In this document: positions 4,424 to 61,409 of the stretch, piece by piece
Layout: the number at the start of each line of letters is the position of its first letter
How positions within the stretch are numbered: position 1 is the stretch's first letter
Origin: Candidatus Poribacteria bacterium
GTDB taxonomy: Bacteria; Poribacteria; WGA-4E; WGA-3G
Direction of reading: 5' to 3'
Length of the DNA: 64,000 bases
NCBI GenBank assembly: GCA_965200395.1
Contig: CBDAUH010000002.1
Span: 244,091 to 308,090, forward strand
Notes under the pieces: model-generated
Told to the model about the DNA's origin: nothing
Database searches by the model: none
What the model saw: only the letters and a program-made list of their open reading frames with translations
Program-made: the position numbers and the translations under genes

Positions 4424-5165
4424 CACCCTCCTCTTTCAAACTGTAAAATATACCATCACCGATAATAATGTGATCTAACACTTTGATGCCAACATAGTTA
4501 CCAGCTTCGATCAGCTGTTTCGTAGCACGGATGTCCTCTTGACTCGGTTGCGGGTCGCCAGAGGGGTGGTTATGTGCCAAAACTATGGAGTTTGCAGATT
4601 CCTCAATTGCAAATCGGAAAATCTCTCTGGGATGAAATACACTTGAGTTTAAAGTTCCCTCAAATACATTTTCCTCAGAGACCAGTTTTTTGCCCCACTG
4701 AATTTCGTTATCTGCGTCACCTGCAATACCCTGTGTGGTGACACCGCCTTTGGTGTCGAGGCACATCACACAGACGACTTCCTGACGGAGATCGCGCATC
4801 AGTGGCATCAATAGGTCGGCAACATCGCTTGGAGAGGAAATCTTTACCCGTTCAGCATGATAACGTGCTAACCGTCTTCCCAATTCAAAAGCAGCAACAA
4901 GTTGTGCTGCTTTAGCAGCCCCAACCCCTTTTATAGATTCAAATTGTTTAGGACGATTTTCTGCCATCCTTTTTAGATCGCTATCATACTCCTTAAGTAT
5001 CAGTTCACCGAGTTCAACAGCAGTAGTGCCTTTGTAGCCACTTTTGAGAAGGAGTGCGATCAGTTCTGAAGTCTTTAGATGTGAGGGACCGTGTTTATAA
5101 AGTCGTTCTCTGGGACGTTCATCTTTAGGTAAATCTTTTATTCTTAATTTATCAACATCGTACAT
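4416..5165 (-). CDS. radC: RadC-like JAB-domain protein (UPF0758)
   Basis: MYDVDKLRIKDLPKDERPRERL...HNHPSGDPQPSQEDIRATKQL is the RadC HhH N-terminus plus the JAMM-like HNHPSG motif. The ORF-track start at 5402 is an upstream over-extension. Confidence 0.75.
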   Translation of the reverse strand: MYDVDKLRIKDLPKDERPRERLYKHGPSHLKTSELIALLLKSGYKGTTAVELGELILKEYDSDLKRMAENRPKQFESIKGVGAAKAAQLVAAFELGRRLARYHAERVKISSPSDVADLLMPLMRDLRQEVVCVMCLDTKGGVTTQGIAGDADNEIQWGKKLVSEENVFEGTLNSSVFHPREIFRFAIEESANSIVLAHNHPSGDPQPSQEDIRATKQLIEAGNYVGIKVLDHIIIGDGIFYSLKEEGVI

Positions 5166-5545
5166 CTCGTTCCCTTTAGTAAAAAATAGTGTTGTACGTT
5201 GGGTTAAAGTATAGTCAATTTTAGCAATAAAGGCAAGTGAAATTCGAAGTAAACTGCATTTCAATGGACATGATTCGGATCGATTGTAAATAGCAGTGCG
5301 TAATGTTAATTTCTTTTGACAATTTTGATGATTAGGAATACAATTTACGATAGGATGTGCATGGAAACTTGTGCATCTGAACGCCACGATTGCGTGGCAC
5401 AAGGAGAAAAAGAATGAAATTCAAGCAGATAAGGACTCCCGTAAAGCGTTTGAACAAATGTTGATTAACATAGCAAATAAATAGGAGAAAAGATGGAAAA
5501 TACAATGGATAATAAGGAACCCACAATCTCTGCCAGAGGAAGCAC

Positions 5546-6388
5546 ATGAATAAAAAAAGGTTATTCTATACGACCCTTGCGGCTGTAATTATAATTGGTA
5601 TTGGCGTTTTTTATGTTCATACCCAACGTCAAAAGAACTTTGCAAAAACGCGTGAAGTATTTGCCCCCATATATGCCTATTCAGGAAAACTCACACCAGA
5701 ACAACAGAAAAAATATTCAGAACTTACTAATTCACTTATGAACGTCTCACCTGATGCCGCGCAAAAATACAGACTACCGCAACGTGAACACCTAATGTTA
5801 GAAGCACACACAATGACTTTATATCGTGACAATCCTGAACTGTTACTAATGGGGCATAGGGCATTTCCTGCTGATACAGATATCGGACCCTATCAGCGAC
5901 ACTTCGGTATCCTTGCCCTGATTGCGAAAACTAAGTTGGCAGATTTACCAGCAGATAGTAGGAAAGTGATGGTCATGCAGCTTGAATCACTCAATATAAG
6001 ACTGGTTAAAAACAGCGTTGGTGCATATATTGATAAAATCAGAGAAACTTCTTCCAATTCATCTAAACCACGTCCTAATATTACCTTTGGAGTCGTTGCC
6101 TATTCAAGAAGGGGCGAGACACAACCGATCTTTCAAGAAGACGGTTCTATGAAAATGCCAGAAGAACGAAAACGTGGTGTTGCTCACATTACTGATATTT
6201 ATGGAAAAGAGTATACGGTCGACCTTGATTCCCTCGCAGCTACTGCTGTGACAGAAGATACAAGCGAATTGTACGCTAAAATTGATCGTCTCTTTGAAGA
6301 ACTCACCGATCAGGAATTCCAGAGGCTTTCAACGCTCAGTAAAACTGAGAGAACCGAAGCTATAGAGACGTTGTTTTCATCTCTATAG
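5546..6388 (+). CDS. hypothetical membrane-anchored protein (N-terminal TM helix)
   Basis: N-terminus LFYTTLAAVIIIGIGVFYV is hydrophobic. No known motif. Confidence 0.4.
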   Translation: MNKKRLFYTTLAAVIIIGIGVFYVHTQRQKNFAKTREVFAPIYAYSGKLTPEQQKKYSELTNSLMNVSPDAAQKYRLPQREHLMLEAHTMTLYRDNPELLLMGHRAFPADTDIGPYQRHFGILALIAKTKLADLPADSRKVMVMQLESLNIRLVKNSVGAYIDKIRETSSNSSKPRPNITFGVVAYSRRGETQPIFQEDGSMKMPEERKRGVAHITDIYGKEYTVDLDSLAATAVTEDTSELYAKIDRLFEELTDQEFQRLSTLSKTERTEAIETLFSSL

Positions 6389-18744: not shown

Positions 18745-18800
18745 GATTTCACCTCACAAAATATAGAAACAGGACTTGCGCATTCCCCCGCTTGCGGGCT

Positions 18801-20135
18801 CACTTACCCCCATTTTTGTATGCGGTATGTGTAGGCGTGTGTGTGTATAGAAATAAGTTGGAAAGTCTGATGGGTTATGGTAGAATACCTCCATATAAAC
18901 CAATGTCGGTGAAAAACCGGCAGGGAGGTATTCTTATGAAATATACCCTTAGTTGGGTACACCCCAGAAAGATTATAACAGGTTTTCGTAAAGTTTTCAA
19001 CGGGGTTTGTATCAAAAAACCGACGCTCCGCAACTTTTATTTGATGCTACAGGCTGTGTGTGTAGCCCCAAGTTTTCGTATTCAATCGATTGCCTCACAT
19101 CTACCTATCCGTGTGAAACACGACAAGTCTAAGCAAAAGCGTGTGTTGCGGTTTATTGACACCTATTTTCCGGTTGCAGCGGTGAAGGGTGCTTGGTTGT
19201 CACATATAGTTGTCAGTGTGTGTCGTTCTGTGGGGATGCAGCATCTGCTTGTGCTGATAGACGAGACAGATTTACCGGGCGGATGGAAGGCGATTGTTGC
19301 AGCCCTTCCGTTTCGCAATCGTGCGATCCCGCTCTATTGGGTTCTGTATAAAAATGAGATGCTCAAAGATGGCACCTATCAAGGACATAACGATTTAGTT
19401 CAGCAGTTCTGTTGTGATGTCCATAGTCGCGTTGTTAAAGTGTTAGGGGATAGTCGGGAGCCTGTGTTGGTCTTTGACAGAGGGTTCGCCCGAGCGAGAG
19501 CGATCCTCAAGTTTTTTGAGGGGCAAGGCATCTGCTACTTGATGCGTGTGCCACGCAATGTTGGTGTGCGTATAGCAGGCAACAAGCAGTGCCTTGAAGA
19601 AGTGGCAAATGGTTTTTACCCACAAGTGCTTTATCACTACACGGAGCAGGTGCCTGTGGCACTCTATGTTGGGGGACAGCACACCAAGAAAGACCCGTTA
19701 TATCTTATCTCCAATCGGCTTCAGGGGAACCCCCTGCGAACTTGCTACAAGCGGCGGACACAGATTGAACACGGGTTCAGAGACTTGAAAACGAACTTCG
19801 GTTTCAAAGCACTCGTTTTGAGAAAGAACGAACAGCCCCGGATGGAAGTTCTGTTTTTGCTGGCAGTCGTGGCTTATGGTTTGGCGTTCCTGTGTTATGA
19901 AAAAGCTGCGGACAGATGGGCAAAAACTTTACACCCTACGCGGAAAGTTTACTCCGTGATCAGTGTCATCAACCGTATGATCCGCGAGGTGTGGACGCAG
20001 GAGGCGTTGCTCTTGTTCACCGAGAGGACTTGTTTGAGAGATATAAACTTTCTCACCGCAGAAGAACTGACATGACAACATTGGAAACCTATGAACACAA
20101 CTACACACGCATTCAAAAAAAAATGGGGGTAAGTG
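18801..20135 (+). mobile_element. IS4-family insertion sequence, copy A (1335 bp), first of a tandem pair
   Basis: Terminal inverted repeats (C)ACTTACCCCCATTTTT at both ends. Identical to copies B, C and D. Confidence 0.85.
18936..20075 (+). CDS. IS4-family DDE transposase (copy A)
   Basis: GGAGG RBS then ATG MKYTLSW. C-terminal YKRRTQIEHGFRDLKTNFGF (Y-R-E-K signature). Confidence 0.8.
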   Translation: MKYTLSWVHPRKIITGFRKVFNGVCIKKPTLRNFYLMLQAVCVAPSFRIQSIASHLPIRVKHDKSKQKRVLRFIDTYFPVAAVKGAWLSHIVVSVCRSVGMQHLLVLIDETDLPGGWKAIVAALPFRNRAIPLYWVLYKNEMLKDGTYQGHNDLVQQFCCDVHSRVVKVLGDSREPVLVFDRGFARARAILKFFEGQGICYLMRVPRNVGVRIAGNKQCLEEVANGFYPQVLYHYTEQVPVALYVGGQHTKKDPLYLISNRLQGNPLRTCYKRRTQIEHGFRDLKTNFGFKALVLRKNEQPRMEVLFLLAVVAYGLAFLCYEKAADRWAKTLHPTRKVYSVISVINRMIREVWTQEALLLFTERTCLRDINFLTAEELT

Positions 20136-20158
20136 CGGCTTGCGGGGGGATAAAGGCT

Positions 20159-21493
20159 CACTTACCCCCATTTTTGTATGCGGTATGTGTAGGCGTGTGT
20201 GTGTATAGAAATAAGTTGGAAAGTCTGATGGGTTATGGTAGAATACCTCCATATAAAATAATGTCGGTGAAAAACCGGCAGGGAGGTATTCTTATGAAAT
20301 ATACCCTTAGCTGGGTACATCCCAGAAAGATTATAACAGGTTTTCGTAAAGTTTTCAACGGGGTTTGTATCAAAAAACCGACGCTCCGCAACTTTTATTT
20401 GATGCTACAGGCTGTGTGTGTAGCCCCAAGTTTTCGTATTCAATCGATTGCCTCACATCTACCTATCCGTGTGAAACACGACAAGTCTAAGCAAAAGCGT
20501 GTGTTGCGGTTTATTGACACCTATTTTCCGGTTGCAGCGGTGAAGGGTGCTTGGTTGTCACATATAGTTGTCAGTGTGTGTCGTTCTGTGGGGATGCAGC
20601 ATCTGCTTGTGCTGATAGACGAGACAGATTTACCGGGCGGATGGAAGGCGATTGTTGCAGCCCTTCCGTTTCGCAATCGTGCGATCCCGCTCTATTGGGT
20701 TCTGTATAAAAATGAGATGCTCAAAGATGGCACCTATCAAGGACATAACGATTTAGTTCAGCAGTTCTGTTGTGATGTCCATAGTCGCGTTGTTAAAGTG
20801 TTAGGGGATAGTCGGGAGCCTGTGTTGGTTTTTGACAGAGGGTTCGCCCGAGCGAGAGCGATCCTCAAGTTTTTTGAGGGGCAAGGCATCTGCTACTTGA
20901 TGCGTGTGCCACGCAATGTTGGTGTGCGTATAGCAGGCAACAAGCAGTGCCTTGAAGAAGTGGCAAATGGTTTTTACCCACAAGTGCTTTATCACTACAC
21001 GGAGCAGGTGCCTGTGGCACTCTATGTTGGGGGACAGCACACCAAGAAAGACCCGTTATATCTTATCTCCAATCGGCTTCAGGGGAACCCCCTGCGAACT
21101 TGCTACAAGCGGCGGACACAGATTGAACACGGGTTCAGAGACTTGAAAACGAACTTCGGTTTCAAAGCACTCGTTTTGAGAAAGAACGAACAGCCCCGGA
21201 TGGAAGTTCTGTTTTTGTTGGCAGTCGTGGCTTATGGTTTGGCGTTCCTGTGTTATGAAAAAGCTGCGGACAGATGGGCAAAAACTTTACACCCTACGCG
21301 GAAAGTTTACTCCGTGATCAGTGTCATCAACCGTATGATCCGCGAGGTGTGGACGCAGGAGGCGTTGCTCTTGTTCACCGAGAGGACTTGTTTGAGAGAT
21401 ATAAACTTTCTCACCGCAGAAGAACTGACATGACAACATTGGAGACCTATGAACACAACTACACACGCATTCAAAAAAAAATGGGGGTAAGTG
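20159..21493 (+). mobile_element. IS4-family insertion sequence, copy B (tandem to A; 23-bp spacer CTTGCGGGGGGATAAAGG... recapitulating the target)
   Basis: Identical to copy A. Confidence 0.85.
20294..21433 (+). CDS. IS4-family DDE transposase (copy B)
   Basis: Identical protein to copy A. Confidence 0.8.
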   Translation: MKYTLSWVHPRKIITGFRKVFNGVCIKKPTLRNFYLMLQAVCVAPSFRIQSIASHLPIRVKHDKSKQKRVLRFIDTYFPVAAVKGAWLSHIVVSVCRSVGMQHLLVLIDETDLPGGWKAIVAALPFRNRAIPLYWVLYKNEMLKDGTYQGHNDLVQQFCCDVHSRVVKVLGDSREPVLVFDRGFARARAILKFFEGQGICYLMRVPRNVGVRIAGNKQCLEEVANGFYPQVLYHYTEQVPVALYVGGQHTKKDPLYLISNRLQGNPLRTCYKRRTQIEHGFRDLKTNFGFKALVLRKNEQPRMEVLFLLAVVAYGLAFLCYEKAADRWAKTLHPTRKVYSVISVINRMIREVWTQEALLLFTERTCLRDINFLTAEELT

Positions 21494-25772: not shown

Positions 25773-27107
25773 CACTTACCCCCATTTTTTTTTGAATGCG
25801 TGTGTAGTTGTGTTCATAGGTTTCCAATGTTGTCATGTCAGTCCTTCTGCGGTGAGAAAGTTTATATCTCTCAAACAAGTCCTCTCGGTGAACAAGAGCA
25901 ACGCCTCCTGCGTCCACACCTCGCGGATCATACGGTTGATGACACTGATCACGGAGTAAACTTTCCGCGTAGGGTGTAAAGTTTTTGCCCATCTGTCCGC
26001 AGCTTTTTCATAACACAGGAACGCCAAACCATAAGCCACGACTGCCAGCAAAAACAGAACTTCCATCCGGGGCTGTTCGTTCTTTCTCAAAACGAGTGCT
26101 TTGAAACCGAAGTTCGTTTTCAAGTCTCTGAACCCGTGTTCAATCTGTGTCCGCCGCTTGTAGCAAGTTCGCAGGGGGTTCCCCTGAAGCCGATTGGAGA
26201 TAAGATATAACGGGTCTTTCTTGGTGTGCTGTCCCCCAACATAGAGTGCCACAGGCACCTGCTCCGTGTAGTGATAAAGCACTTGTGGGTAAAAACCATT
26301 TGCCACTTCTTCAAGGCACTGCTTGTTGCCTGCTATACGCACACCAACATTGCGTGGCACACGCATCAAGTAGCAGATGCCTTGCCCCTCAAAAAACTTG
26401 AGGATCGCTCTCGCTCGGGCGAACCCTCTGTCAAAGACCAACACAGGCTCCCGACTATCCCCTAACACTTTAACAACGCGACTATGGACATCACAACAGA
26501 ACTGCTGAACTAAATCGTTATGTCCTTGATAGGTGCCATCTTTGAGCATCTCATTTTTATACAGAACCCAATAGAGCGGGATCGCACGATTGCGAAACGG
26601 AAGGGCTGCAACAATCGCCTTCCATCCGCCCGGTAAATCTGTCTCGTCTATCAGCACAAGCAGATGCTGCATCCCCACAGAACGACACACACTGACAACT
26701 ATATGTGACAACCAAGCACCCTTCACCGCTGCAACCGGAAAATAGGTGTCAATAAACCGCAACACACGCTTTTGCTTAGACTTGTCGTGTTTCACACGGA
26801 TAGGTAGATGTGAGGCAATCGATTGAATACGAAAACTTGGGGCTACACACACAGCCTGTAGCATCAAATAAAAGTTGCGGAGCGTCGGTTTTTTGATACA
26901 AACCCCGTTGAAAACTTTACGAAAACCTGTTATAATCTTTCTGGGGTGTACCCAACTAAGGGTATATTTCATAAGAATACCTCCCTGCCGGTTTTTCACC
27001 GACATTATTTTATATGGAGGTATTCTACCATAACCCATCAGACTTTCCAACTTATTTCTATACACACACACGCCTACACATACCGCATACAAAAATGGGG
27101 GTAAGTG
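25773..27107 (-). mobile_element. IS4-family insertion sequence, copy C, flanked by 9-bp target-site duplication CCGAGAAAT
   Basis: Identical 1335-bp element. CCGAGAAAT appears at 25764-25772 and 27110-27118. Confidence 0.85.
25833..26972 (-). CDS. IS4-family DDE transposase (copy C)
   Basis: Identical to copy A. Confidence 0.8.
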   Translation of the reverse strand: MKYTLSWVHPRKIITGFRKVFNGVCIKKPTLRNFYLMLQAVCVAPSFRIQSIASHLPIRVKHDKSKQKRVLRFIDTYFPVAAVKGAWLSHIVVSVCRSVGMQHLLVLIDETDLPGGWKAIVAALPFRNRAIPLYWVLYKNEMLKDGTYQGHNDLVQQFCCDVHSRVVKVLGDSREPVLVFDRGFARARAILKFFEGQGICYLMRVPRNVGVRIAGNKQCLEEVANGFYPQVLYHYTEQVPVALYVGGQHTKKDPLYLISNRLQGNPLRTCYKRRTQIEHGFRDLKTNFGFKALVLRKNEQPRMEVLFLLAVVAYGLAFLCYEKAADRWAKTLHPTRKVYSVISVINRMIREVWTQEALLLFTERTCLRDINFLTAEGLT

Positions 27108-27566
27108 AGCCGAGAAATGGGGGGCACAATGATCCTACCTGGAAGCCATTTCAGACGTGTCTGTGAAACCGATGTAGCGCGTTATCAAAACTTCCTTGGA
27201 CAACACCCGATAGTTTGTAACGCAGGTACACTTGTCGTCGTACATCATGGTATTTGGCACTGTGCACAACCCAACTTGACTGACGAAACACGGTATATGT
27301 TCAAGTTACGCCTCAATCCGACTGTACGTCAACTCAAATTATGGAATACAGATGACATCGATACGGCAGGAATTCGTGGTATTCTGGGCCGGAACCATAG
27401 ATGGTATGGCAATGATGTACGTCTTGAAATTGTCAATCGAATTAAGTTTTGGCGTTTCCTGACTGGAAATGAATCCTACGATGTCGGTTATTGGCTATCT
27501 CGTCTTGAAAATATGCCAGAGAATGTGCCGAACGTAGCGTAGTTTCTAAACTCTTAAACACAAAAC

Positions 27567-28614: not shown

Positions 28615-29541
28615 TCACCGCATCTTACCGTCCTTGAATCTTGCAATAGCACCACGTTCAGCAAGCTCTGCCTTCGCATAATGTGCAGGCATTTGAGAAG
28701 ATTTCCACCGCCCCGCCACCTGCATATCAACAACAGTCGCCCCCGCAGCAGCAAGCGACATCGCTGAGCCCACACGCAGCGAATGCCCAGAAATAAAACC
28801 ATCCACTCCCGCATCTGATGCACGTTTTTGAATAATACGTCGCGCAGAATGATCGTGCAGCCTATTTAACTGAATATGTCCACCGCGAGGTATCTGTCGA
28901 AACAACGCGCCGTCATCAATACCACTCCCCTCAAGATATTTTGACATGATGCTGCGTGTCCTATCACATACGTAAAGACTATCGCCGCGTCCCTCTTGGT
29001 CAGATTTGGAACCTTGCACCGTAAACGTCGTCCCTTTAAAGTCTTCCACATTCGCAGCCACCACTTCACTGATACGCAACAGACAATCACTCATTAGTCG
29101 AATCATTGCAGCATCACGTAAACCCGCGAGGGTACCATCGGTTTCAGCCTGAATGCAGACACGTTCCACATCTTGCCAAATCAGTCCATCCACCTGTCCA
29201 CGCCCTCTCTGTTTTCCATTTCTACGGATTCCTGCCAACGTTGCGTGCGTAATCGGCATGGCAAAATCCGCACCGTCCTGATGTTTCAACTGCCATTTCA
29301 CAGCAGCGACCACCTGTGAAATCGTTGATGGTGATTTCCCATTTTCATGGAGCTCTGTCAAGTACGTAGCGAGCATGCCATCCGACAACGTCTCACCTGG
29401 AGGTTTCCAATCTTCAAACCTTTGCAGCGCATGTTGGTATGCCTTCTTCGTATTCTCTGATATGCTGGAATGAATTAGGTTTTTGATTTTCGGGCGAAGT
29501 TTATCTAGTGACGATTCCCGTTTCTCAAGAGCGTTTTGCAT
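28615..29541 (-). CDS. tyrosine-type site-specific recombinase/integrase (phage integrase family)
   Basis: C-terminal HSLRVGSAMSLAAAG...AGRWKSSQMPAHYAK carries the catalytic R..H-x-x-R...Y. Start MQNALEK at 29541; the longer ORF-track version runs through the tRNA. Confidence 0.75.
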   Translation of the reverse strand: MQNALEKRESSLDKLRPKIKNLIHSSISENTKKAYQHALQRFEDWKPPGETLSDGMLATYLTELHENGKSPSTISQVVAAVKWQLKHQDGADFAMPITHATLAGIRRNGKQRGRGQVDGLIWQDVERVCIQAETDGTLAGLRDAAMIRLMSDCLLRISEVVAANVEDFKGTTFTVQGSKSDQEGRGDSLYVCDRTRSIMSKYLEGSGIDDGALFRQIPRGGHIQLNRLHDHSARRIIQKRASDAGVDGFISGHSLRVGSAMSLAAAGATVVDMQVAGRWKSSQMPAHYAKAELAERGAIARFKDGKMR

Positions 29542-29659
29542 ATTAATCCTCAAATGACATTTAGGTGTTTTGGATAACAGTTGCAGAATTGTGAAAACAC
29601 AAGCTGACAGAACAGCACCAGAAAAGAGGGTGATGTTCCTACTCCGAACAGCAATAAAA

Positions 29660-29736
<77 letters not shown>

Positions 29737-29940
29737 ACCTGACTTATCTATAAATGATAACACATAACCACTTTAAAAGCAAGTATTTTTTTAGTTCGCG
29801 CTTCTATTTCATCTTGACTTTTTCAATCTGCAAATATATAATTCCACTATGACACAAGAATATCAGTATAGTCAATTTACTAGGAATATCAAGAAAGACT
29901 CGCCTGTACACAACGAATTCATCACATAGGCATTTAAAAG

Positions 29941-31341
29941 ATGTTAACCAAAGCCGATATTGAACGTGAAAAATTAAGACACAATACATCGTTCTTCAGG
30001 GCAATCCTTGCACCGACAAATGAGGAGCGACAACTGCTTTTTACGCTAAAAAACATCGGCAAGTTACCGGATGATTTTGATGGCGATTTGTTTATCCCAT
30101 TACTTAATCACGCCAATGCAAAGATTCGATGTCTTGCCATAAAAAATGTTGGAAAGTTAAAAGACGAACGTTTTTTAACGAACCTCATTAAATTTGCGGA
30201 AACAGAGAAAAATACACTTGCACGGCGCGAAGCTGTTTCGGCAATCGGTAGACTCAAAACCGAAAACGCTATTCCGATTTTAACACGGTTTACTACCGAT
30301 ACTGATCCGAAGGTTGTATTGCAGGCGGTACGGGGTTTGCTTTATTTTAAAAGACATCGAGAAACGCAAATAGTATTAACATCGCTTGCTGAACATCCGA
30401 ATGAATTGATACAGGAACAGATAGCAAGAGAACTACAACAACATGACTACACAGATTCTTCTAAAACACTAAACCATCCAGCTAGTCCAGACACGCTTAA
30501 AAATGTAATGGTATATGCCGATGTTCAAGATGTGTTAAAAGTTATTCCGGATGAATCTATTCATTTGACTTTTACTTCACCACCTTATTACAATGCCCGT
30601 GATTATACCATTTTCCCGAGTTATGAGGCGTATCTTGATTTTCTAACATCAGTTTTCAAAGAGACGCATCGTATTACAAAAGAGGGTAGATTCTTTGTAC
30701 TAAACACGTCACCTGTTATTGTGCCACGTATTAGTCGCGCCCATTCCAGCAAACGATATGCAATTCCATACGATATTCATCCACGGCTAACAGAAATTGG
30801 TTGGGAATTTATTGATGACATTATATGGATGAAACCTGAATACGCTGCAAAGAATCGAAACGGTGGTTTTTTCCAACATCGTAAACCGCTTGGATACAAA
30901 GCAAACTCTATCACTGAAAGTGTGATGGTGTATCGTAAGAAAACAGACAAACTCATTGATTGGAATCTCCGTCAGTATGAAGAGGATATTATTAACACGA
31001 GCAAAGTGATGGGTGAATATGAAAAAACTAATGTTTGGCAAATAAATCCGGCAACAGATAAAGTTCATCCCGCAATTTTTCCACATGAATTAGCTTCCCG
31101 TATCATTCAGTATTACTCATTTAAAGGTGATCTCGTCTTTGACCCATTTGGTGGAAGCGGTACTGTCGGACATGTCGCTCTGCTACATGAAAGATATTTT
31201 TTTCTCTGTGAAAAGATGGAAGAATACGTTGAGCGTGCCAAACAAGCACTTGATACAGCACTATTTTCTGGTATAAACCCTCGTATATTTTCACTTACTG
31301 AATTAAGTTCACGCATAGCAGAGGAGTCACAAAAACCATGA
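29941..31341 (+). CDS. DNA methyltransferase (beta-class N4/N6, PF01555-like; SPPY then FDPFGGSGT) with an N-terminal HEAT/PBS-lyase-like repeat domain
   Basis: HLTFTSPPYYNARDY (motif IV) precedes DLVFDPFGGSGTVGHVA (motif I). The first ~170 aa carry repeated ...IRCLAIKNVGKL.../...RREAVSAIGRL.../...VVLQAVRGL... helices. Confidence 0.7.
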   Translation: MLTKADIEREKLRHNTSFFRAILAPTNEERQLLFTLKNIGKLPDDFDGDLFIPLLNHANAKIRCLAIKNVGKLKDERFLTNLIKFAETEKNTLARREAVSAIGRLKTENAIPILTRFTTDTDPKVVLQAVRGLLYFKRHRETQIVLTSLAEHPNELIQEQIARELQQHDYTDSSKTLNHPASPDTLKNVMVYADVQDVLKVIPDESIHLTFTSPPYYNARDYTIFPSYEAYLDFLTSVFKETHRITKEGRFFVLNTSPVIVPRISRAHSSKRYAIPYDIHPRLTEIGWEFIDDIIWMKPEYAAKNRNGGFFQHRKPLGYKANSITESVMVYRKKTDKLIDWNLRQYEEDIINTSKVMGEYEKTNVWQINPATDKVHPAIFPHELASRIIQYYSFKGDLVFDPFGGSGTVGHVALLHERYFFLCEKMEEYVERAKQALDTALFSGINPRIFSLTELSSRIAEESQKP

Positions 31342-32321
31342 CTGTTACTGGCGGAGTAATTAAGAACATTATCCGAAAACTTTTTGCTGGAGCGGATTAT
31401 CGTTCCGAAGTGCTGGCATTGATTAACGCTGAATTCTTGCAATATGCTGTCGATTTTTTCAAACGTGTAGCTTGTGCAAAGCTGGATAATCAATCTGTAA
31501 CAGTTGACTGGTACAAAAAGGAATTCCTCAATTCAGATTCATATCGACCCGAAGAAATTGCTATTCACTCAGGACTGAACAAGAAAACAATTACAAATGC
31601 ATATAGTTCTGCCCGGAAACAAATAGTGTTGGAAGTATCCCTTGAACATTATAATTCACTTTATAACGCTATTAACAGTTTGACCGAACAAGATGAGCTT
31701 GATATTGCCCTAACATTAAAATTTAGAGATGTTAGTGTTGATTTAAATATTAATGAAAGTTTGATTGTCATCAATACTCTCGCCGTCAAACGCTCTGCAC
31801 TCCGTGGAGCATTATGGAGTACATCAGGAAAACAGGTAGAAAAACCTTTGATGATAACACTTTGTGCCCTTTTTCAAGTCCCAATAAAATATTTTGATCA
31901 GAGGAACCTACCAGAATCTGAACGCGAATCCGATTTTTATCTTTTTGACGAAACAGGGAAAGATTATCCTTGTGAAGTAAAATTAATGGGAAAAGGGAAT
32001 CCCGAAAGTGCTGACGCAGTATTCGCTCGCGGGGGTCGCGTCCTTGTTGCTAACAAACTTTCTGAGACTAATAAACAACAGATGGACAAAGATGGTATCC
32101 TTTGGGTTGAACTTCAAACTGTAGACGGTTATAAGAGATTTGAACATGTGCTAAAGGCATTGTCAATCCCTTGTAAACCTTTTGCCGGTGATCTCGAAAC
32201 TGCGTTAGACAAAATTTTATCCATTATTCTTTCTGATGATGTACAGAATTCTGTAACTCCTGAGATAGTTTTACAAGAGACCTTACTTAAAGACTCAGAA
32301 TTATTGATTGAATTTGAATGA
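31338..32321 (+). CDS. putative Type II restriction endonuclease partner (candidate PD-(D/E)XK: FD-x9-EVK)
   Basis: ATGA overlap with the MTase stop. Motif FYLFDETGKDYPCEVKLMGKG. No other recognisable family. Confidence 0.4.
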   Translation: MTVTGGVIKNIIRKLFAGADYRSEVLALINAEFLQYAVDFFKRVACAKLDNQSVTVDWYKKEFLNSDSYRPEEIAIHSGLNKKTITNAYSSARKQIVLEVSLEHYNSLYNAINSLTEQDELDIALTLKFRDVSVDLNINESLIVINTLAVKRSALRGALWSTSGKQVEKPLMITLCALFQVPIKYFDQRNLPESERESDFYLFDETGKDYPCEVKLMGKGNPESADAVFARGGRVLVANKLSETNKQQMDKDGILWVELQTVDGYKRFEHVLKALSIPCKPFAGDLETALDKILSIILSDDVQNSVTPEIVLQETLLKDSELLIEFE

Positions 32322-32998
32322 AAATTTTAGGTCTTGACACCTCAACCCCTATCGGCAGTGTTGCCCTTATAAATGAGGAAAACATAGTTGCCGAACATAC
32401 CCTTAATATCGTCCAAGCACACTCCTCAAGACTGATGCCAGCAATTGATACTGTTCTGAAATGGGGTGAAATCATGCCAGGTGCCTTAGATGGATGTGCT
32501 ATAGGTATCGGACCTGGATCGTTTACTGGTGTCCGTATCGGTGTTGCAACAGCGAAATCGCTCTGTTATGCAGTTGACAAACCGATCGTCGGTGTCTCAA
32601 CATTAGAGACGATTGCATATAATCTCCGATGGACAAATGGCGTTATTTGTCCGATTCTTGATGCACGACGTAGTGAAATTTATGGAAGTATTTTTCAAGG
32701 TGGCGAAAAATGGCAACGTCTCGCTGACGATCTCTGCTTATCTATTGATGCGTTTTTAGATGAACTTGACAGTCATATCTCATCAGATGCAATTCCTATT
32801 TTTGTTGGAGATGGACTTGCTACTTATGGTGATGTAATTCAAGAGAGGCTTGGTAGGACGGTACCGTTTGCAGATCAGATATTTAATGTGCCACGTGGGT
32901 CAACTATTGCAAAACTTGGCGCGCAACGACTAAAACAAGGTGATAGTGATAGTTATTGGACTTTAGTGCCAAACTATGTTAGGATTGGATTGTATTGA
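32318..32998 (+). CDS. tsaB: tRNA threonylcarbamoyladenosine biosynthesis protein TsaB (YeaZ)
   Basis: MKILGLDTSTPIGSVAL...GIGPGSFTGVRIGVATAKSL. ATGA overlap with the upstream gene. Confidence 0.85.
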   Translation: MKILGLDTSTPIGSVALINEENIVAEHTLNIVQAHSSRLMPAIDTVLKWGEIMPGALDGCAIGIGPGSFTGVRIGVATAKSLCYAVDKPIVGVSTLETIAYNLRWTNGVICPILDARRSEIYGSIFQGGEKWQRLADDLCLSIDAFLDELDSHISSDAIPIFVGDGLATYGDVIQERLGRTVPFADQIFNVPRGSTIAKLGAQRLKQGDSDSYWTLVPNYVRIGLY

Positions 32999-33070
32999 AA
33001 TCTGAAACCTAAGCTTATCCTCAATAAGACCTTACATTACACATCTATTAGCTCATTTTCCCTCTATCAA

Positions 33071-34492
33071 ATGAACCATATTGTAAAAAATACATCTGCC
33101 CTATTCGGTGCACACATTTTCGGTCGCCTTGGATCGCTCATATTAACACTCTGGCTGATGCCTCGGTTTTTTACGGAGAGCGATTTAGGCGGCTATTTCG
33201 TTGCAATCGCCCTAACCAATCTGATTGCAAGTCTAACAGAACTCGGTATACAAAGTCCATTGATTCGGGAAATGACGTTAAGTCTATCCGAAACACGTCA
33301 TTATCTCGGCAATGCACTTCTTGTTCGTCTAATCTTGTCTGTTATAGCATACACGGTCATGATTGTCAGTGGTATAATTTTGTGGTCTACCTCAACAATT
33401 TTGACAATGATAGTTTATTTAGGGTTGGCAGAGATTGTCAATTCCATTGCACAGCTTTATAGATGCGTCTTCCGAGCACATGAGGAGATGAAATTTGAAG
33501 CGTTGACAGTGCTGGCAGAACGTGGAACACTTTTTATTATAGGTGGTGCGGCAATCCTACTCGGATACAATATTGTAAATGTATGTCAAGTTTGGTTGTT
33601 AGCAGGATGTTTTAATCTTGTTCTGAGTATCGGATTTGTGCGATTTCGCTTCACACCGCTCAGTTTTGAACTGAGCTGGCAGGTAATAGTTGTACTAATG
33701 CGACAAGCACTCCCTTTTGCAGTTGGTAATCTGTTCAACTTAATCTATTTTCGTATTGACGCAATTATGCTGTCAAAACTTAGCCCTGATCGTATGGATG
33801 CTAACACGTGGTACGGATTGGCGTATACGTTAGTCAATGCTATTACAATCTTACCTGGGGCATTTCTGATGGGTGCAATGTTTCCTCTGCTTTCCCGCCT
33901 ATATGAAAATGATCGCGATAGATTATCGCAGGCATATACATTCGGTGTACGGTGGATGGTAATATGTGGCATACCGATAGCAGTTGGACTTGCAGTGCTC
34001 TCACACGAAATTTCGAATCTGTTATTTTATCGGTACACACCAGGGACCATAGAAAAAATTTCGACGGCCATGCAGTGGCTAAGTGCAACATGTGGCACAG
34101 TTTTCTTGTCAACCGTGGTCATTACTGTGCTTCGCGCTGCAGATAAACGCCTTGTGTTTTCAATACTTATGGGGACAACAGCACTATTGAACATCATATT
34201 GAACTTTATATTGATACCACGACTCAACCACGTGGGCGCAGCAATTGCAATGGTAATTAGTGAGGCATATCTACTAACCATTGGGTTTAGCTATATTACC
34301 AAACGGATTGTAAATCTAACTGAAATTAGATTTATTTTTAAGGTTATCCTCATTTCTGCTGTGATGGGAATAGGTTTGGTGTTGTTAAAGGGAATACTAT
34401 CTATTTGGATTCTGATTCCATTGGCGATAGTTGCTTATTTTATTGGGATTGCGTTATGGGGTGAATTTCGGATTAGGTTTGAGTTTGATTAA
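33071..34492 (+). CDS. polysaccharide biosynthesis / oligosaccharide flippase (Wzx/MOP superfamily) membrane protein
   Basis: About 12 predicted TM helices. N-terminus KNTSALFGAHIFGRLGSLILTLWL is typical of the Polysacc_synt family. Confidence 0.6.
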   Translation: MNHIVKNTSALFGAHIFGRLGSLILTLWLMPRFFTESDLGGYFVAIALTNLIASLTELGIQSPLIREMTLSLSETRHYLGNALLVRLILSVIAYTVMIVSGIILWSTSTILTMIVYLGLAEIVNSIAQLYRCVFRAHEEMKFEALTVLAERGTLFIIGGAAILLGYNIVNVCQVWLLAGCFNLVLSIGFVRFRFTPLSFELSWQVIVVLMRQALPFAVGNLFNLIYFRIDAIMLSKLSPDRMDANTWYGLAYTLVNAITILPGAFLMGAMFPLLSRLYENDRDRLSQAYTFGVRWMVICGIPIAVGLAVLSHEISNLLFYRYTPGTIEKISTAMQWLSATCGTVFLSTVVITVLRAADKRLVFSILMGTTALLNIILNFILIPRLNHVGAAIAMVISEAYLLTIGFSYITKRIVNLTEIRFIFKVILISAVMGIGLVLLKGILSIWILIPLAIVAYFIGIALWGEFRIRFEFD

Positions 34493-34542
34493 AACTCAAG
34501 AGGAGTCTTGCGCTCAAGTTTCAAAACATATACAATAGCAGT

Positions 34543-37500
34543 ATGAATTTTCAAAGACACTGTGACCAATATCTACAGACAATAAACGAAACACGATCCG
34601 ACCCGAATGCAACCCCTGAACTCTCTTTGCTGCCACATTTACAAGCATTCCTGCAAAAGGTTCCCGTTGAACATTTTGCCTGTCCCAACAACAGCCCCAA
34701 AATAAGATTCACACTGGAACCCAGAACAATCAACCAGATCGGACGACCGGACATCATCGCAACAGATGGATTGTTACCTATCGGCTATATTGAAGCGGAG
34801 GAATACGGCACAGACCTAAACAACCTAACAGGACACGCCGCACAACAGAACAAACGTTTTAAGGAAAACCTTGATAACTTTATCCTTACCAATTTTATTG
34901 ATTTTCAGCTGTGGGTAGATGGGAAATGTAACACAACAGCGCGAATTACAGACAACACCGATGATTTAGCGATATTATTAGAACGATTCCTGAACGCATC
35001 TATCCAAATCGGCACACCGGAAGCACTCGCAAAATACCTTGCAAGACGGACACGAGAACTCCAAACACAGATTACCGCAACGCTTAACGACCAAAACAGC
35101 GAAACCTATCAGTTGTATAAGGCATTCAGAGAAACACATCTCTTTACACTAACACCCAGAGATTTTGCTGACATGTACGCACAAACGCTCTCTTACGGAC
35201 TATTCGCCGCACGCTGCACCTTACCGAATGAAACCTATTTCCTACGACAAACCGCTGCTGAGACACTACCAGAATCCAATCCATTCCTAAAAGACCTTTT
35301 TTATCAGATTGCATCTCCAAAACTCACGAAAAACATTAAATTTATTCTGGATGACATCGCAAGACTATTACGTAACGTTCCAACAGAAATGCTCCAAACG
35401 TCATTAGCACCTACAGATGACTTTGAAGACCATGTTATCCATTTCTATGAACCATTCCTAAAAGAATATAATTCAAAACTCAAGATCGATCGCGGCGTAT
35501 TCTACACACCGCGCCAGGTAATCTCTTACATCGTACGTTCTGTGGACGCACTGCTCAAATCGGAACTCAACAGACCCGACGGACTCGCAGATGACAACAC
35601 CCTCATCCTTGACCCCGCAACAGGCACAGGTGGATTCCTGCTGTCCGTGCTTGACCACATCCGAGAATACGTTACCGACAATTATGGAACAGGAGAGTGG
35701 CAGCAATATGTCAACGAGCAATTAGTCAAACGCATTTTCGGATTTGAACTACTTGTCGCTCCCTATACAATTGTACATCTCAAGTTGAGTCAATTCTTAC
35801 AAGAGCATGGATGGCACGACAATGAACGTCTCCGTATCTATCTCACTAATACATTAGAACAACCCGCAGAGACAGTGGAGACACAACCCTTTGCACCGTT
35901 TCTCTCTGACGAAGCAAACGAAGCACTCTCTGTGAAACGGGACGACCCTATCCTCGTCATCCTCGGCAATCCACCCTATCCAGAGGATTCTGCCAACCCA
36001 AGTCGTGATAGTAATAGAGAGTTAACTTTCATTGGAAAACTTATTGAAGATTACAAACAGTTAGATGGAGAATCGCTTGATGATAGGAATTTAAAAATGC
36101 TTCAGTCAGATTATGTAAAATTCACTCGGTGGGCACAGTGGCGTATTGATAGAAACGGTGAAGGTGTTATTGGCTATATTGTTAACAATAGTTTTCTTGA
36201 CGGTCGAGCCTTTCGCGGGATGCGGCAGAGTCTAATGAAAAGTTTCAACACTGTTTACATACTCAATTTACACGGTAGCATCAGAAGACACGAAGCAGTA
36301 CCAGAAGGTCAGAGAGATGAAAATGTTTTTGACATTTCACAAGGGGTTTGCATCTTGTTGTGTGTCAAAAAACGCGACAATCGTGCCTTGTCAAAGGTGT
36401 ATCATGCGGATATATGGGGATCGCGGCAGGAAAGATATAATTTGCTTTTGCAGACCGATGTTCAAACCACACAATGGTGTGAACTACAACCGGCATTACC
36501 ACTTTGTCTTTTTGTGCCGCAAACTGCAGAATATAGCACTGAATACGAAGCAGGTTGGAGTATTAACGACATCTTTCATACAGGTTCGGTTGGAATGGCT
36601 ACTGGTCGGGATAGATTGACGATTCATTGGACTGCTGGAGGTATCCGTGAAACTGTGAACGACTTTATTTCACTTTCTCCAGACGAAGCACGGGAACAGT
36701 ATAATTTGGGAAGGGATACTCATCATTGGCAGATTCCCCGCGCTCAGGCAGATCTTCGTAATAACCCAAATGTTGAACAACACGTAACGACAATTCGCTA
36801 CCGTCCGTTTGACACACGCTGGACCTATTACACAGGACAGACAGGTTTCCACTCACGCCCAAACTATGATATTATACGACATTTACACGGTGTTGAAAAT
36901 ATTGCTCTCTGTGTCTGTCGTATTGTGACAAGTTCTGTTTGGAATCATGTTTTGATAACTGACAAAGTAACTGAAAAGAGTTATATTTCAAACAGAGGAA
37001 GTGAATCCACCCACGTATTCCCACTTTACCTATATACTGATTCAGAGGGATTATTAGGTGCAACAGAACGCGAACTGAATTTCAAACATGCTTTTCTCAC
37101 CGCACTCGCTGAGTCATTGGAATTACCACAGACTCCCCCGTTTGGCCTTCCCGAAGGCATCACACCAGAGCAGATTCTCGCTTATATTTATGCGGTGTTG
37201 AATAGTGCCAAATATCGTGAACGATACTATGAATTTCTGAAATACGATTTCCCGCGTATCCCTTTACTGCAGGATATTGACGAATTCTGCGTACTTGCAG
37301 AGTATGGACAAGAATTAATTGATTTACATCTCTTGAAGGACAGGAACATACCGCATCGTCATTTATTTGAGGGTGAAGGAGATGGTATCGTCTCAAAACT
37401 TCGTTATGAAGATGGCAATGTCTGGATCAACAGCACACAGCATTTTACGAATGTACCCCAGAAGTGTGGGAATATGAGATCGGAGCATATCAGGTGTGTG

Positions 37501-37626
37501 AGAAATGGTTGAAGGATAGGAAGGGCAAAGAACTAAGTCGTGATGATCTCAGACAGTATCGTTCTATTTTGGTTGCTGTTGCAGAGACGCTGCGAGTGAT
37601 GGCGGAGATTGATTGGGTGCTGTAGT
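34543..37626 (+). CDS. MmeI-like Type IIG restriction-modification enzyme (N-terminal nuclease-like domain, gamma-class N6-adenine MTase, C-terminal specificity domain); apparent -1 frameshift near 37460 (CCCC run)
   Basis: Motif I LILDPATGTGGFL and motif IV ILGNPPY. After the in-frame stop at 37510-37512 the +1 frame continues as EVWEYEIGAYQVCEKWLKDRKGKELSRDDLRQYRSILVAVAETLRVMAEIDWVL, the conserved Type IIG/ISP C-terminal module. Confidence 0.7.
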
Positions 37627-39676: not shown

Positions 39677-40993
39677 AGGGTTATTTAGTTTTATAGATAT
39701 TCATTTTATCAAGTTAACTGTGAGTAAAGGTTTTGATGCATATTCCTTTATTTTATCAGCGATCCGTGTTATGCCTTGAAAACGGAATACGGATAATGCG
39801 GTATTTCGTAAAGCGGCCATGACTTGTGGAATAGCCCCGCATCTGACAGGTGATGCGTCCTCGCCGAGTAGCACATCGCGCATCCAATGCGACTTGTTCT
39901 CTATTGCCCAATGGCCTCTCCGTAAAGCAAGTAAGCGTTCTGCGGATGCCTCACTCGGTTTCAGGCTCGTAATCCCATAGGTAGTGCGGGTTGTCTCTTC
40001 TCCTGTCTTCATATTTTTGGAAGTATAGCAATATTGGATCACTTGTGCTACGCCCGGCCAATCCAGATATGCGTTGAGACTTGTGCTTGCCTTGATACAT
40101 CGCGTCTCAAGTCTGCCATGCGACTTTTCAATCGTCTCATGCATGTATATCGGTTTCCCTAAAGTAGGGTGTGTTGTGTCTTCAGAAACCGCGTCAGGCA
40201 CGCCTTGAAAAAGTTTTTCAATCGCTTCTAACAGGTCCGGTTGATTGCCTTTAACAGGCAGCATATAGTCGCCCCCGCTGTTTATGATTCCGTGGCAGAA
40301 AGAGCGTTGTGTCAAAAGGGCATCCGTTGTGATAACTTTGCCTGCTACATCAAACGCTTTGAGGATTTCCGTTGATACCGGTATTTCATTGGTTTTGTCG
40401 CTGACACCTCGCTGCGTGAGGGTGATCCCTAACTCATGAGAGACGACGGAGAGTAAATGGCTGATCATCGCACCACTTTTTTTAGACGCACGCAGGGTTT
40501 TGCCATCTATAGCGACTGCGTCGGAACACCCCCGCAAATCAGGGCACTCTGCTAATGCGGCGTTTACCCATTTTGACAGGATGTTTTCTAATGCCTCAAC
40601 GTCCAACTTTTTCAACAGATTATGGATAGTTGCGGCACAAGGCGTTTTGTGATGTGTGAACCCGAGTGCTTTTGTGAGTGCGGGCTGTGAGCGTGCCCAG
40701 GTAGCGATGGATGTATACCCTTTATGCCCGCACATCAATCCAACGACTAAAAGTGCGAGGATTGCTTTCAACGGGTGTCGTTTCCCTTTTTCCTTGCGTG
40801 GGTCTGTAAGTTCTGCTAACATATCCATTAAGTGGCAGGACTTTTTTCTTGTCATTCTTCACCTCAAAAGATCGTAAGTTTTTAAGGTGAAGTATAGCAG
40901 ATATACCATGAAAAATCACGGTATATCTGCACATCCTAAAATATTAACGATTGTGATAAAAAACAACTAAAATACATAAAACTAAATAACCCT
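39677..40993 (-). mobile_element. ISAs1-family insertion sequence inside an R2 repeat; IRs GGGTTATTTAGTTTTAT; 11-bp TSD ATCCGGTGAAT
   Basis: Inverted repeats at 39678-39694 and 40976-40992. ATCCGGTGAAT at 39666-39676 and 40994-41004. The flanks rejoin to a normal R2 sequence. Confidence 0.8.
39701..40855 (-). CDS. ISAs1-family transposase (H-repeat-associated protein type)
   Basis: ...LALRRGHWAIENKSHWMRDVLLGED... is the ISAs1 signature. N-terminal DDE_Tnp_1_assoc-like region. Confidence 0.8.
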   Translation of the reverse strand: MTRKKSCHLMDMLAELTDPRKEKGKRHPLKAILALLVVGLMCGHKGYTSIATWARSQPALTKALGFTHHKTPCAATIHNLLKKLDVEALENILSKWVNAALAECPDLRGCSDAVAIDGKTLRASKKSGAMISHLLSVVSHELGITLTQRGVSDKTNEIPVSTEILKAFDVAGKVITTDALLTQRSFCHGIINSGGDYMLPVKGNQPDLLEAIEKLFQGVPDAVSEDTTHPTLGKPIYMHETIEKSHGRLETRCIKASTSLNAYLDWPGVAQVIQYCYTSKNMKTGEETTRTTYGITSLKPSEASAERLLALRRGHWAIENKSHWMRDVLLGEDASPVRCGAIPQVMAALRNTALSVFRFQGITRIADKIKEYASKPLLTVNLIK

Positions 40994-56641: not shown

Positions 56642-56757
56642 TCCCGGCAGCGACCTACTTTCCCACGGGGTCACCCCCGAAGTATCATCAGCGCTGAAGG
56701 GCTTAACTACCGTGTTCGGAATGGGAACGGGTGTGTCCCCTTCGCTGTAACCACCGG
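56642..56757 (-). rRNA. rrf: 5S ribosomal RNA
   Basis: Reverse complement TCCGGTGGTTACAGCGAAGGGGACACACCCGTTCCCATTCCGAACACGGTAGTTAAGCCC...CGCTGCCGGGA matches 5S helices. Confidence 0.8.
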
Positions 56758-56824
56758 AAAGATATACATAATTATTTGACAACTGAATAGCGTGTGAGGA
56801 ATCGGTAGAGAAAAATAAGTTATC

Positions 56825-59858
<3,034 letters not shown>

Positions 59859-59949
59859 ATATTTTTATTCTACCGATTTACCCTCTACTATTCAGTTGTC
59901 AAAGAACGCCGCCTATATTCCCAGAAATGCAAGCATTTCATTTAGGCGA

Positions 59950-60022
59950 TGGAGATGAGCGGAGTTGAACCGCTGACCTACTGCGTGCAAAGCAGTTGCT
60001 CTCCCAGCTGAGCTACACCCCC
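59950..60022 (-). tRNA. tRNA-Ala (anticodon TGC), no encoded CCA, upstream of 23S in the operon
   Basis: Reverse complement GGGGGTGTAGCTCAGCTGGGAGAGCAACTGCTTTGCACGCAGTAGGTCAGCGGTTCAACTCCGCTCATCTCCA. G3:U70. Anticodon loop TTTGCAC. Confidence 0.85.
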
Positions 60023-60668: not shown

Positions 60669-61409
60669 TCATTTCAGGTCCAAGAATTGATAAGGGTCAA
60701 TTCCTGCCTCTGCCATGTTAACAACCGTAATATCCGATGGGATATCACTTTCAGTAAGTTCACCTTTACCTTTACGTCGTTCGATGTCTATGAGAATTCT
60801 TCCCTTGTGCGGATCCCCGCGCATACCGGACATTGTCTTTTTCACAGTCCCATCTGACAGTGTAAGGTGTTCCCATTCAATATACACCACTCCAGGTAAT
60901 GTAGGATAAACCAATCCATCACTCATAATCCCACCAAGAGTACGTTTTCCTTGTTTCCAAAGTTTGATTTGCACGCGGAGCAATAGTTCCGATTCCGCAG
61001 TGATAGGACCAGTATAATCCCAAACATCTTGTCTCGGATAATCAGGTGGAACAACAGGATAGGGACCAAATCCATGAGGTGAAACGCGGACCACGGTTTC
61101 GCCTGTTTCCTCTATCTGTTCTATCGGGTTTGGATTGGGCTCACTGGGTACAGTGTCTTCCACCACACCTTCAGTTGCTCCGGCTATTGATTTCTCTGCG
61201 GTTGGAGTTGTGTGTTCTATAGACGATATTTCTGCTGGTGGCTGTGGTTTTGCCTTTTTATCAGCTTCCCACTGTTCCAGCAACTGATCAGCTTTCTCGG
61301 CTTCTTGTTTATATTCCGCCGTCGTGTGTTGGTAATACCAATAACACATAGCAGCAAATATCAACAAGAAGAACGCTGCACCGATGGTGATTAAGATGTC
61401 GCGAATCAT
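60669..61409 (-). CDS. hypothetical membrane-anchored protein; C-terminal 140 aa paralogous to 63418-64000
   Basis: N-terminal TM (ILITIGAAFFLLIFAAMCYWYY). Shared motifs FGPYPxVPxDY...KLWQQG...DPYQFL. Confidence 0.4.
   Translation of the reverse strand: MIRDILITIGAAFFLLIFAAMCYWYYQHTTAEYKQEAEKADQLLEQWEADKKAKPQPPAEISSIEHTTPTAEKSIAGATEGVVEDTVPSEPNPNPIEQIEETGETVVRVSPHGFGPYPVVPPDYPRQDVWDYTGPITAESELLLRVQIKLWKQGKRTLGGIMSDGLVYPTLPGVVYIEWEHLTLSDGTVKKTMSGMRGDPHKGRILIDIERRKGKGELTESDIPSDITVVNMAEAGIDPYQFLDLK

Follow-up and report, generated by a model that had tools for sequence, protein, structure and literature searches.

Type II restriction-modification (RM) genes are commonly regarded as selfish elements of patchy distribution, quickly gained or lost, which raises the question of how a locus in Candidatus Poribacteria has come to hold such genes co-diverging with housekeeping genes in dozens of species. 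In the 64,000-nt stretch of DNA analyzed here (the window; all coordinates are positions in it), a methylase gene (M) and a nuclease gene (R) run directly into tsaB, which encodes the dimerisation subunit of the N6-threonylcarbamoyladenosine (t6A) threonylcarbamoyltransferase complex. Our analysis points to a predicted two-gene cassette, a HEAT-methylase with a CfrBI-family nuclease, which appears to be horizontally mobile between phyla and which in Poribacteria would have been inherited vertically, under strong purifying selection, at the head of the tsaB operon. The features that carry this argument are the following.

29814-29842, + strand: sigma-70-like promoter candidate, TTGACT-17-TATAAT, 11/12 matches to consensus, ~100 bp 5' of M
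29941-31341, + strand: M, putative methyltransferase, open reading frame (ORF) of 466 amino acids (aa)
29941-30450, + strand: HEAT-like alpha-solenoid of M, aa 1-170 (Pfam HEAT_2; alphaRep matches; AlphaFold)
30451-31341, + strand: linker and predicted beta-class N4-cytosine (N4C)/N6-adenine methyltransferase (MTase) catalytic domain of M (Pfam N6_N4_Mtase; PADLOC MTase_II)
31338-32321, + strand: R, putative CfrBI-family Type II restriction endonuclease (REase), ORF of 327 aa
32318-32998, + strand: tsaB, ORF of 226 aa (TIGR03725)
33071-34492, + strand: polysaccharide/MurJ-type flippase (Pfam Polysacc_synt 7e-23), the downstream neighbor, syntenic in relatives

Overlapping reading frames and a candidate promoter link M and R to tsaB

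The three ORFs are chained by their stop and start codons. The M/R and R/tsaB junctions read AAACCATGACTG and GAATTTGAATGAAAATT, each a 4-nt ATGA stop/start overlap, and both these sequences and the coordinates agree with the chain of ORFs that a preliminary description of this DNA had proposed. A Shine-Dalgarno-like GAGGAG lies within M, 12 nt before the start of R. The assignment of the tsaB product is full-length and at equivalog level (TIGR03725; 2.5e-51, 174.6 bits against a cutoff of 69.3).

When positions 29500-34700 were scanned against the promoter consensus, the element at 29814-29842 gave the best match, and no comparable promoter or terminator was found in the sequence scan between M and tsaB. 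An aligned TTGAC(T/A)-17-TATAAT element is present in the RM-less locus L085, 3' of the tRNA flank and upstream of a small ORF and tsaB. We infer that the element in the window may be the promoter of M-R-tsaB, and the overlaps, together with the lack of an internal promoter or terminator, suggest that the three genes form a single operon. A literature search for a link between tsaB and RM systems found nothing relevant.

M is predicted to be a beta-class methyltransferase with a HEAT-like domain

The catalytic part of M carries SPPY (motif IV, aa 213-216) ahead of FGGSGT (motif I, aa 403-408), which is the beta-class order, and both motifs are unchanged in an alignment of 22 homologues. Residues 207-434 match Pfam N6_N4_Mtase (PF01555; 2.3e-39, 136 bits against a cutoff of 26.7), and the REBASE-derived PADLOC model MTase_II covers aa 66-431 (1e-82). 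The nearest solved sequence matches of this part in a PDB sequence search are TTHA0409 (2zie; 9e-23) and M.PvuII (1.7e-10). Motif order and Pfam match thus both agree with the beta-class reading first given to M, whose product is predicted to be an N6_N4 DNA methyltransferase of that class. The presence of SPPY, and not DPPY, suggests N4-cytosine methylation; the PDB matches include the N4C MTases 1boo and 8s9n, and the sub-threshold NCBIfam matches are adenine MTases.

The N-terminal part of M, ~170 aa long, had been expected to fold as alpha-solenoid repeats, and this is what both profiles and modeling indicate. HEAT_2 (PF13646) matches aa 50-131 (2e-15, 57.3 bits against a cutoff of 27.7), and the best match to alphaRep HEAT-like repeat proteins in the PDB sequence search reaches 1.8e-20. 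In the AlphaFold model aa 1-165 consist entirely of paired and stacked helices, with predicted local distance difference test scores (pLDDT) of 80-95, and the helix pairs H60-73/76-88, H92-104/110-119 and H123-134/140-149 score 88-95; the geometry between the domains is unreliable, with a predicted template modeling score (pTM) of 0.41. The domain is mildly basic, with an isoelectric point (pI) of 9.3, and may serve in non-specific DNA binding or in protein-protein contact.

In a search of 1.84 billion cluster representatives, the N-terminal region was found in only ~10 clusters at 50% identity, and many close relatives of the catalytic domain were found without it. A sister cassette (L089) combines a HEAT-less M, 59% identical over the catalytic domain, with a paired CfrBI-family nuclease 43% identical to R. 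Because so few clusters carry the solenoid and a HEAT-less cassette exists, the domain is best read as a predicted accessory module that one branch of this RM family carries. A literature search for HEAT-fused N4C methyltransferases found nothing relevant.

A further HEAT-less close relative of M (L088:3073-4867; 58% identity) lies beside a second N6_N4 methylase and a large intein/LAGLIDADG-containing gene, with small unannotated ORFs around all of these and no nuclease. This setting looks like that of a phage-borne orphan methylase.

R is predicted to be a CfrBI-family nuclease

Residues 7-244 of R match positions 3-255 of the 257 in Pfam RE_CfrBI (PF09516; 65.1 bits against a gathering score of 25), the match to PADLOC REase_II is full-length (3e-95), and close homologues carry the NCBI name 'CfrBI family restriction endonuclease'. 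Pfam and the PADLOC models therefore place both proteins in RM families, M by N6_N4_Mtase and MTase_II and the 327-aa protein by RE_CfrBI and REase_II, and this clear assignment speaks strongly against the earlier suspicion that the latter might belong to a different system entirely.

Four residues, E197, D199, E213 and K215, are invariant in 80/80 full-length homologues. The preliminary description had proposed a weak nuclease motif, FD-x9-EVK; its EVK part stands as E213-V-K215, and its FD part does not, since the residues at 203-204 vary among homologues and the acidic partner is the invariant D199 (in RESDFYLF). The structural core of R resembles PD-(D/E)XK nucleases, which are its nearest structural neighbors (VC1899, Can2, AF1548, the LlaBIII nuclease domain, BsaWI, PspGI and NgoMIV), and the conserved D...(D/E)xK is placed on a central beta-sheet core. 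Neither the PDB sequence search nor a tblastn search of a plasmid collection gave a match to R. We regard R as a predicted CfrBI-family Type II restriction endonuclease with a putative PD-(D/E)XK site, D199...E213-x-K215.

The methylase-nuclease pair is spread across phyla

Relatives of R were collected by a nuclease alignment scan over one genome per GTDB species; 192 were found and the best 80 were kept. Loci examined in this work are labelled L001 and so on. About 50 of these best 80 of 192 are from Poribacteria, at 58-90% identity. The rest, at 56-63% identity, are carried by Chloroflexi, Bacteroidota, Ignavibacteria, Cloacimonadota, Armatimonadota, a Jettenia planctomycete, Thiomargarita, Dolichospermum and one Woesearchaeote. 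The M-R pairing is kept in ~70 loci, and outside Poribacteria a HEAT+MTase gene stands directly 5' of R wherever the M region lies inside the fetched DNA. The fusion had at first been called unusual; in fact it is present in every cassette with its M region inside the fetched DNA, over many phyla, and is therefore a hallmark of the mobile cassette and not a peculiarity of this genome. Exact or near-exact homologues of the M, R and TsaB proteins occur in Candidatus Poribacteria assemblies; protein clusters consulted for names of the window's proteins gave no useful information. From their distribution, the HEAT-methylase and the nuclease are predicted to form a horizontally mobile two-gene cassette of many bacterial phyla and one archaeon.

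In Poribacteria the pair co-diverges with its housekeeping neighbors

Arrangement classes were counted over 49 Poribacteria species loci. M-R-tsaB, with the R stop overlapping or <=3 nt from the tsaB start and mostly with the same GAATGAAAAT junction, accounts for 28 of the 49. Three more keep M-R-tsaB but leave a gap before tsaB, two hold R-tsaB at the end of a contig and one (L050) has R-tsaB but no M; M-R lies elsewhere in the genome in 11, and R stands alone in 4. The gene order M-R-tsaB-flippase is likewise found in 28/49 loci, a degree of retention consistent with the preliminary proposal that the RM pair is wired into the tsaB transcription unit. In all 25 M-R-tsaB loci scanned, tRNA-Ala(GGC) lies 70-4300 bp 5' of M on the opposite strand, often with a Transglut_core2/TPR gene in between.

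Protein distances of the HEAT, MTase and REase parts correlate with those of tsaB and the flippase (Mantel r 0.59-0.87, 27 loci), and none of 2000 permutations reached the observed r. The median ratio of nonsynonymous to synonymous substitution rates (dN/dS) is 0.12 for HEAT, 0.057 for the MTase domain, 0.097 for the REase, 0.098 for tsaB and 0.10 for the flippase, and the mean distance of the MTase catalytic domain is 0.157, against 0.211 for tsaB. Because of these correlations, and of dN/dS values near those of tsaB and the flippase, the M-R pair appears to be inherited vertically under strong purifying selection in Poribacteria, which is unusual for Type II RM genes.

Clean loss, nuclease decay and relocation

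Retention is not complete. The tsaB loci of L085 and L086 lack both upstream genes, which the preliminary description had thought worth looking for in relatives. L085, the closest relative by tsaB (89% identical), reads tRNA-Ala, 605 bp, then tsaB-flippase-Type IIG, and no remnants of M or R were found at its tsaB site. L086 is without the pair at tsaB, and the same genome has a pair with a truncated R beside an ABC-ATPase-tsaE operon; L007 and L011 likewise carry an M-R pair beside such an operon. Elsewhere R has decayed: L087 has an intact M and an R without aa 165-256, including the catalytic residues, and R is disrupted in L012, L027, L031 and L071. Nuclease decay and clean losses are the familiar life cycle of RM systems, here superimposed on long-term retention.

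In the sub-clade formed by L001-L003, L007, L011 and L012, M-R stands divergent to the ABC-ATPase/tsaE/glycosyltransferase operon (M of L007 at ~4604-6000). The pair is thus away from tsaB but again beside a gene of the t6A pathway, tsaE; this goes back to one relocation event and may be a coincidence.

Palindrome avoidance gives no recognition site

Site avoidance was assessed with maximal-order Markov expectations in the window, in ~0.7 Mb of Poribacteria loci (L002-L052, L056 and L085-L087, ~50 species) and in 0.27 Mb from other carriers. CATATG occurs once against 13.8 expected in the 64-kb window and 15 times against 129 in the Poribacteria set, where GRCGYC (120 observed, 415 expected) and CYCGRG (185 observed, 388 expected) are also strongly depleted, as are TTCGAA and GACGTC. 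No site stands out in both Poribacteria and the other carriers, and the attempt to assign a recognition site in this way was given up. The depleted palindromes indicate long exposure to several Type II systems, which confounds the avoidance signal.

The tRNA, the integrase and other neighbors

Three further features flank the operon.

28615-29763, - strand: ORF of a tyrosine recombinase, start inferred at ~29541 (Pfam Phage_integrase 3.3e-11 and a SAM-like domain)
29661-29736, - strand: tRNA-Ala(GGC) (ARAGORN and Rfam)
34543-37512, + strand: Type IIG enzyme (N6_Mtase + Type_ISP_C), a second and independent RM gene (Pfam; PADLOC REase_MTase_IIG 5.6e-224)

As listed, the recombinase ORF extends across the tRNA; its translation probably begins at an internal Met near 29541. 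The recombinase lies on the 3' side of tRNA-Ala(GGC) and M-R on the 5' side. Aligned with L085, the window loses homology 78 bp beyond the 3' end of the tRNA: the two share the tRNA flank, and L085 has no integrase segment. Where gene content was examined in syntenic relatives, the integrase position is occupied by other genes. The tRNA persists where the pair is incomplete, decayed or missing, in L050 (without M), L087 (with a decayed R) and L085 (without RM genes). A search for an att-like repeat or a copy of the tRNA 3' end found only short, chance-like repeats, and the RM genes do not lie between an att at the tRNA 3' end and a distal att repeat. As far as these comparisons can tell, the integrase is strain-specific and no part of the RM unit. 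The tRNA/integrase hotspot of the preliminary description is consequently not supported as the source of the RM genes, since the integrase is on the opposite side and absent in the closest relative, and the tRNA is a conserved neighbor of the operon.

Directly 5' of tRNA-Ala(GGC), a block at 29737-29800 (TAATGATAACACAT...AAAAGCAAATA) is conserved in L005, L013, L014, L032, L035 and L085 and probably serves the tRNA as its minus-strand promoter region. The Type IIG gene is frameshifted near codon 968 relative to its 1020-aa orthologue in L085, with the last ~60 aa in another frame (37443-37622), and is either a pseudogene or the product of an assembly error. The position of the Type IIG gene varies with the species: it follows the flippase or comes ahead of it, after tsaB. 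The spacers around tsaB take in other small defense and toxin-antitoxin modules in different species, so that tsaB and the flippase can be separated by a BrnT toxin/CopG antitoxin pair or by Type IIG, and M and the tRNA by an AAA_15/AAA_21 ATPase (L016:7715-8247, L087:7720-8246, L008:8005-8268, L032:7763-10942, L004:5982-7520).

Further from the operon, the window holds four DDE_Tnp_1 transposase ORFs (18792-21433, 25833-27092, 39701-40855). Three of them match the same part of the profile (positions 76-196) and so are probably the same kind of insertion sequence (IS). A truncated piece of a PhyH dioxygenase (27105-27542) adjoins the ORF at 25833-27092, an arrangement that points to insertion of an IS into the dioxygenase gene. 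On the minus strand, 56642-60022 holds 23S and 5S ribosomal RNA (rRNA) genes preceded by tRNA-Ala(TGC), the 23S match spanning 3035 nt against a model of 2925 nt. The 4 kb left upstream hold protein ORFs (60669-61409 and 61883-63115) and neither 16S rRNA nor tRNA-Ile, and the rRNA genes therefore appear unlinked.

How the cassette may have become part of the operon

The explanation that we favor, and hold as a whole to be very probable, is that M and R constitute a Type II (probably IIP) RM cassette. If both enzymes are active, M would protect the host DNA and R would cut unmethylated copies of the same site. With M first, and with R coupled to it by the ATGA overlap and by the GAGGAG inside M, R would not be expected without M. 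The cassette, moving horizontally between phyla, would have landed between tRNA-Ala(GGC) and tsaB in the ancestor of a large Poribacteria clade, where it would then have been expressed from the promoter upstream of tsaB, its R stop fused to the tsaB start. Vertical inheritance would have followed, with purifying selection matching that on the housekeeping genes beside it and with occasional clean loss, decay of R and relocation. A more speculative extension, to which we give limited credence, is that a mobile and short-lived RM system was fixed as a quasi-core pair by coming to lead the essential tsaB operon, and that the HEAT solenoid may add a step of control or targeting. Were this so, most losses or silencing of the cassette would also disturb tsaB expression, which would stabilize a defense or addiction module.

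Several observations weigh against this explanation. In the promoter consensus scan the total number of matches was no higher than in shuffled sequences. tsaB is without a Shine-Dalgarno sequence even in RM-less relatives; the overlap between R and tsaB is therefore no proof of obligatory translational coupling, and we rejected the missing Shine-Dalgarno sequence as such a proof. AlphaFold models the catalytic domain of M poorly, because of a shallow alignment, and R poorly as well (mean pLDDT 52). CCWWGG, the CfrBI site, is not markedly avoided in Poribacteria (300 observed against 356 expected), avoidance being an indirect proxy, and counts in the other carriers are 83 observed against 109 expected. 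Five Poribacteria species have an intact R with the D/E/K residues kept and no M within 6 kb (L038:6001-6993, L045:6001-7032, L048:6001-6993, L051:5998-6990 and L050:6001-6972). Beside these solitary genes no remnants of M were found, except for its last ~25 nt 5' of R in L050. They are awkward for a simple picture of toxin and antidote unless M lies elsewhere in the genome.

Among the neighbors of the solitary R genes are a TIR-TPR, an HSDR_N-like and an HNH protein. R is still fused to tsaB in L050, where it is more diverged than the tsaB of that locus predicts.

Four other explanations can be set against an RM cassette absorbed into the operon. The weak motif of the first reading, the low confidence of the R model and the lack of a sequence relative in the PDB might mean that the 327-aa protein is no nuclease and that the pair is some other two-gene system. 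This is hardly credible given a Pfam match well above its gathering threshold, a full-length REase_II match, an invariant D...ExK triad, PD-(D/E)XK nucleases as best structural neighbors, and a methylase partner in all but the few solitary cases. We also think it very improbable that the RM pair is cargo of a recent mobile island, brought by the tyrosine integrase to tRNA-Ala, and thus an addiction module only incidentally near tsaB. It is true that integrase, a DDE transposase and tRNA all lie within 4 kb, that the GC content dips slightly over M-R (0.37-0.39 against ~0.43) and that the cassette is mobile between phyla. However, the integrase is 3' of the tRNA and the RM genes 5' of it, with no att-like repeat found; the arrangement tRNA...M-R-tsaB-flippase is kept in ~30 species, and without the integrase in those relatives whose genes were examined; and the RM genes co-diverge with their neighbors, while L085 shares the tRNA flank and lacks the integrase segment.

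The two remaining explanations concern function. The methylase might have been domesticated, serving mainly as an epigenetic or housekeeping mark tied to tsaB, with the nuclease a mere enforcer or on its way out and defense no longer selected. The catalytic domain of M is indeed more conserved than tsaB, in both distance and dN/dS, vertical retention of the pair over a phylum-level clade is not typical of Type II RM, and R decays while M stays intact (L087, L012, L027 and L031). We nevertheless consider domestication unlikely, as R has a dN/dS like that of tsaB and invariant catalytic residues, five species are locally without M rather than R, the closest relative lost both genes cleanly, and the locus gathers other defense and toxin-antitoxin genes (Type IIG, BrnT/CopG and AAA_15/21 ATPase), which fits a defense role. 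Somewhat less unlikely is the idea that the HEAT domain makes this a mechanistically distinct RM variant, as a regulatory or targeting module that binds the nuclease to time or restrain it, or that brings the methylase to a cellular partner, for instance the replisome. Contacts between proteins are the typical business of HEAT repeats, and the domain is kept in every cassette with a complete M, in many phyla, under purifying selection and with a confident solenoid fold; no C-protein or other regulator was found in the cassette by ORF list and Pfam. On the other hand, the HEAT-less sister cassette indicates that the RM chemistry needs no such domain, a mildly basic domain could, as with the HEAT-like repeats of AlkD-type glycosylases, simply add non-specific DNA affinity, and the geometry between the domains is unreliable in the model.

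Automatic annotation already names the M and R proteins, and the basic classification is unchanged by our analysis. A literature search on RM systems in Poribacteria listed general papers on sponge microbiomes only. The interest of the locus lies in its setting: in Poribacteria, an uncultivated phylum of sponge symbionts, it offers a clean natural example of defense genes embedded in a core operon, with natural 'knock-outs' for comparison among the loci that lost both genes cleanly, those whose R decayed and those that lost M. The HEAT-methylase fusion, in turn, represents an uncharacterized branch of beta-class methyltransferases found in many phyla.

Comparison with known systems

The beta-class MTases TTHA0409 (2zie), M.PvuII (1boo), M.RsrI, M.MboIIA and CcrM share with M the order of motif IV before motif I and the PF01555 fold. 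The solved chains of this class match only aa 190-437 of M, and its HEAT region matches only artificial or stand-alone HEAT-repeat proteins; CcrM has a C-terminal DNA-binding domain instead. The N-terminus of M agrees in repeat length and sequence signature with the PBS-lyase/alphaRep HEAT-like repeats (PF13646), although in M they are joined to a DNA methyltransferase and there is no phycobiliprotein context.

The closest named counterpart of the pair is the CfrBI system of Citrobacter freundii, for which a passage of PMC6556831 gives the site CCWWGG and describes M.CfrBI as an N4-methylcytosine MTase. According to an abstract (bioRxiv 10.64898/2025.12.04.692298), its genes are plasmid-borne and divergent and are regulated by a CfrBI site in their common promoter. 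Both are two-gene Type II systems in which a nuclease of the same Pfam family (PF09516) has an amino-methyltransferase as its partner. In the window, by contrast, M and R are co-directional, overlapping and chromosomal, and the promoter region has no CCWWGG; the Pfam match of R is also of moderate strength (65 bits), so its specificity may differ. No HEAT domain of M.CfrBI is mentioned in that passage or abstract, a comparison that is one of descriptions and not of sequences.

An extra N-terminal region on the methylase, in a Type II system without a separate controller protein, recalls M.SsoII, whose residues 1-71 regulate transcription of its own system according to the abstract of PMC3978073. 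The extension of M differs from it in being a ~165-aa HEAT-like solenoid. The locus thus holds a recognizable kind of RM system, of which one domain variant is uncharacterized and whose long fixation in a core operon is unusual.

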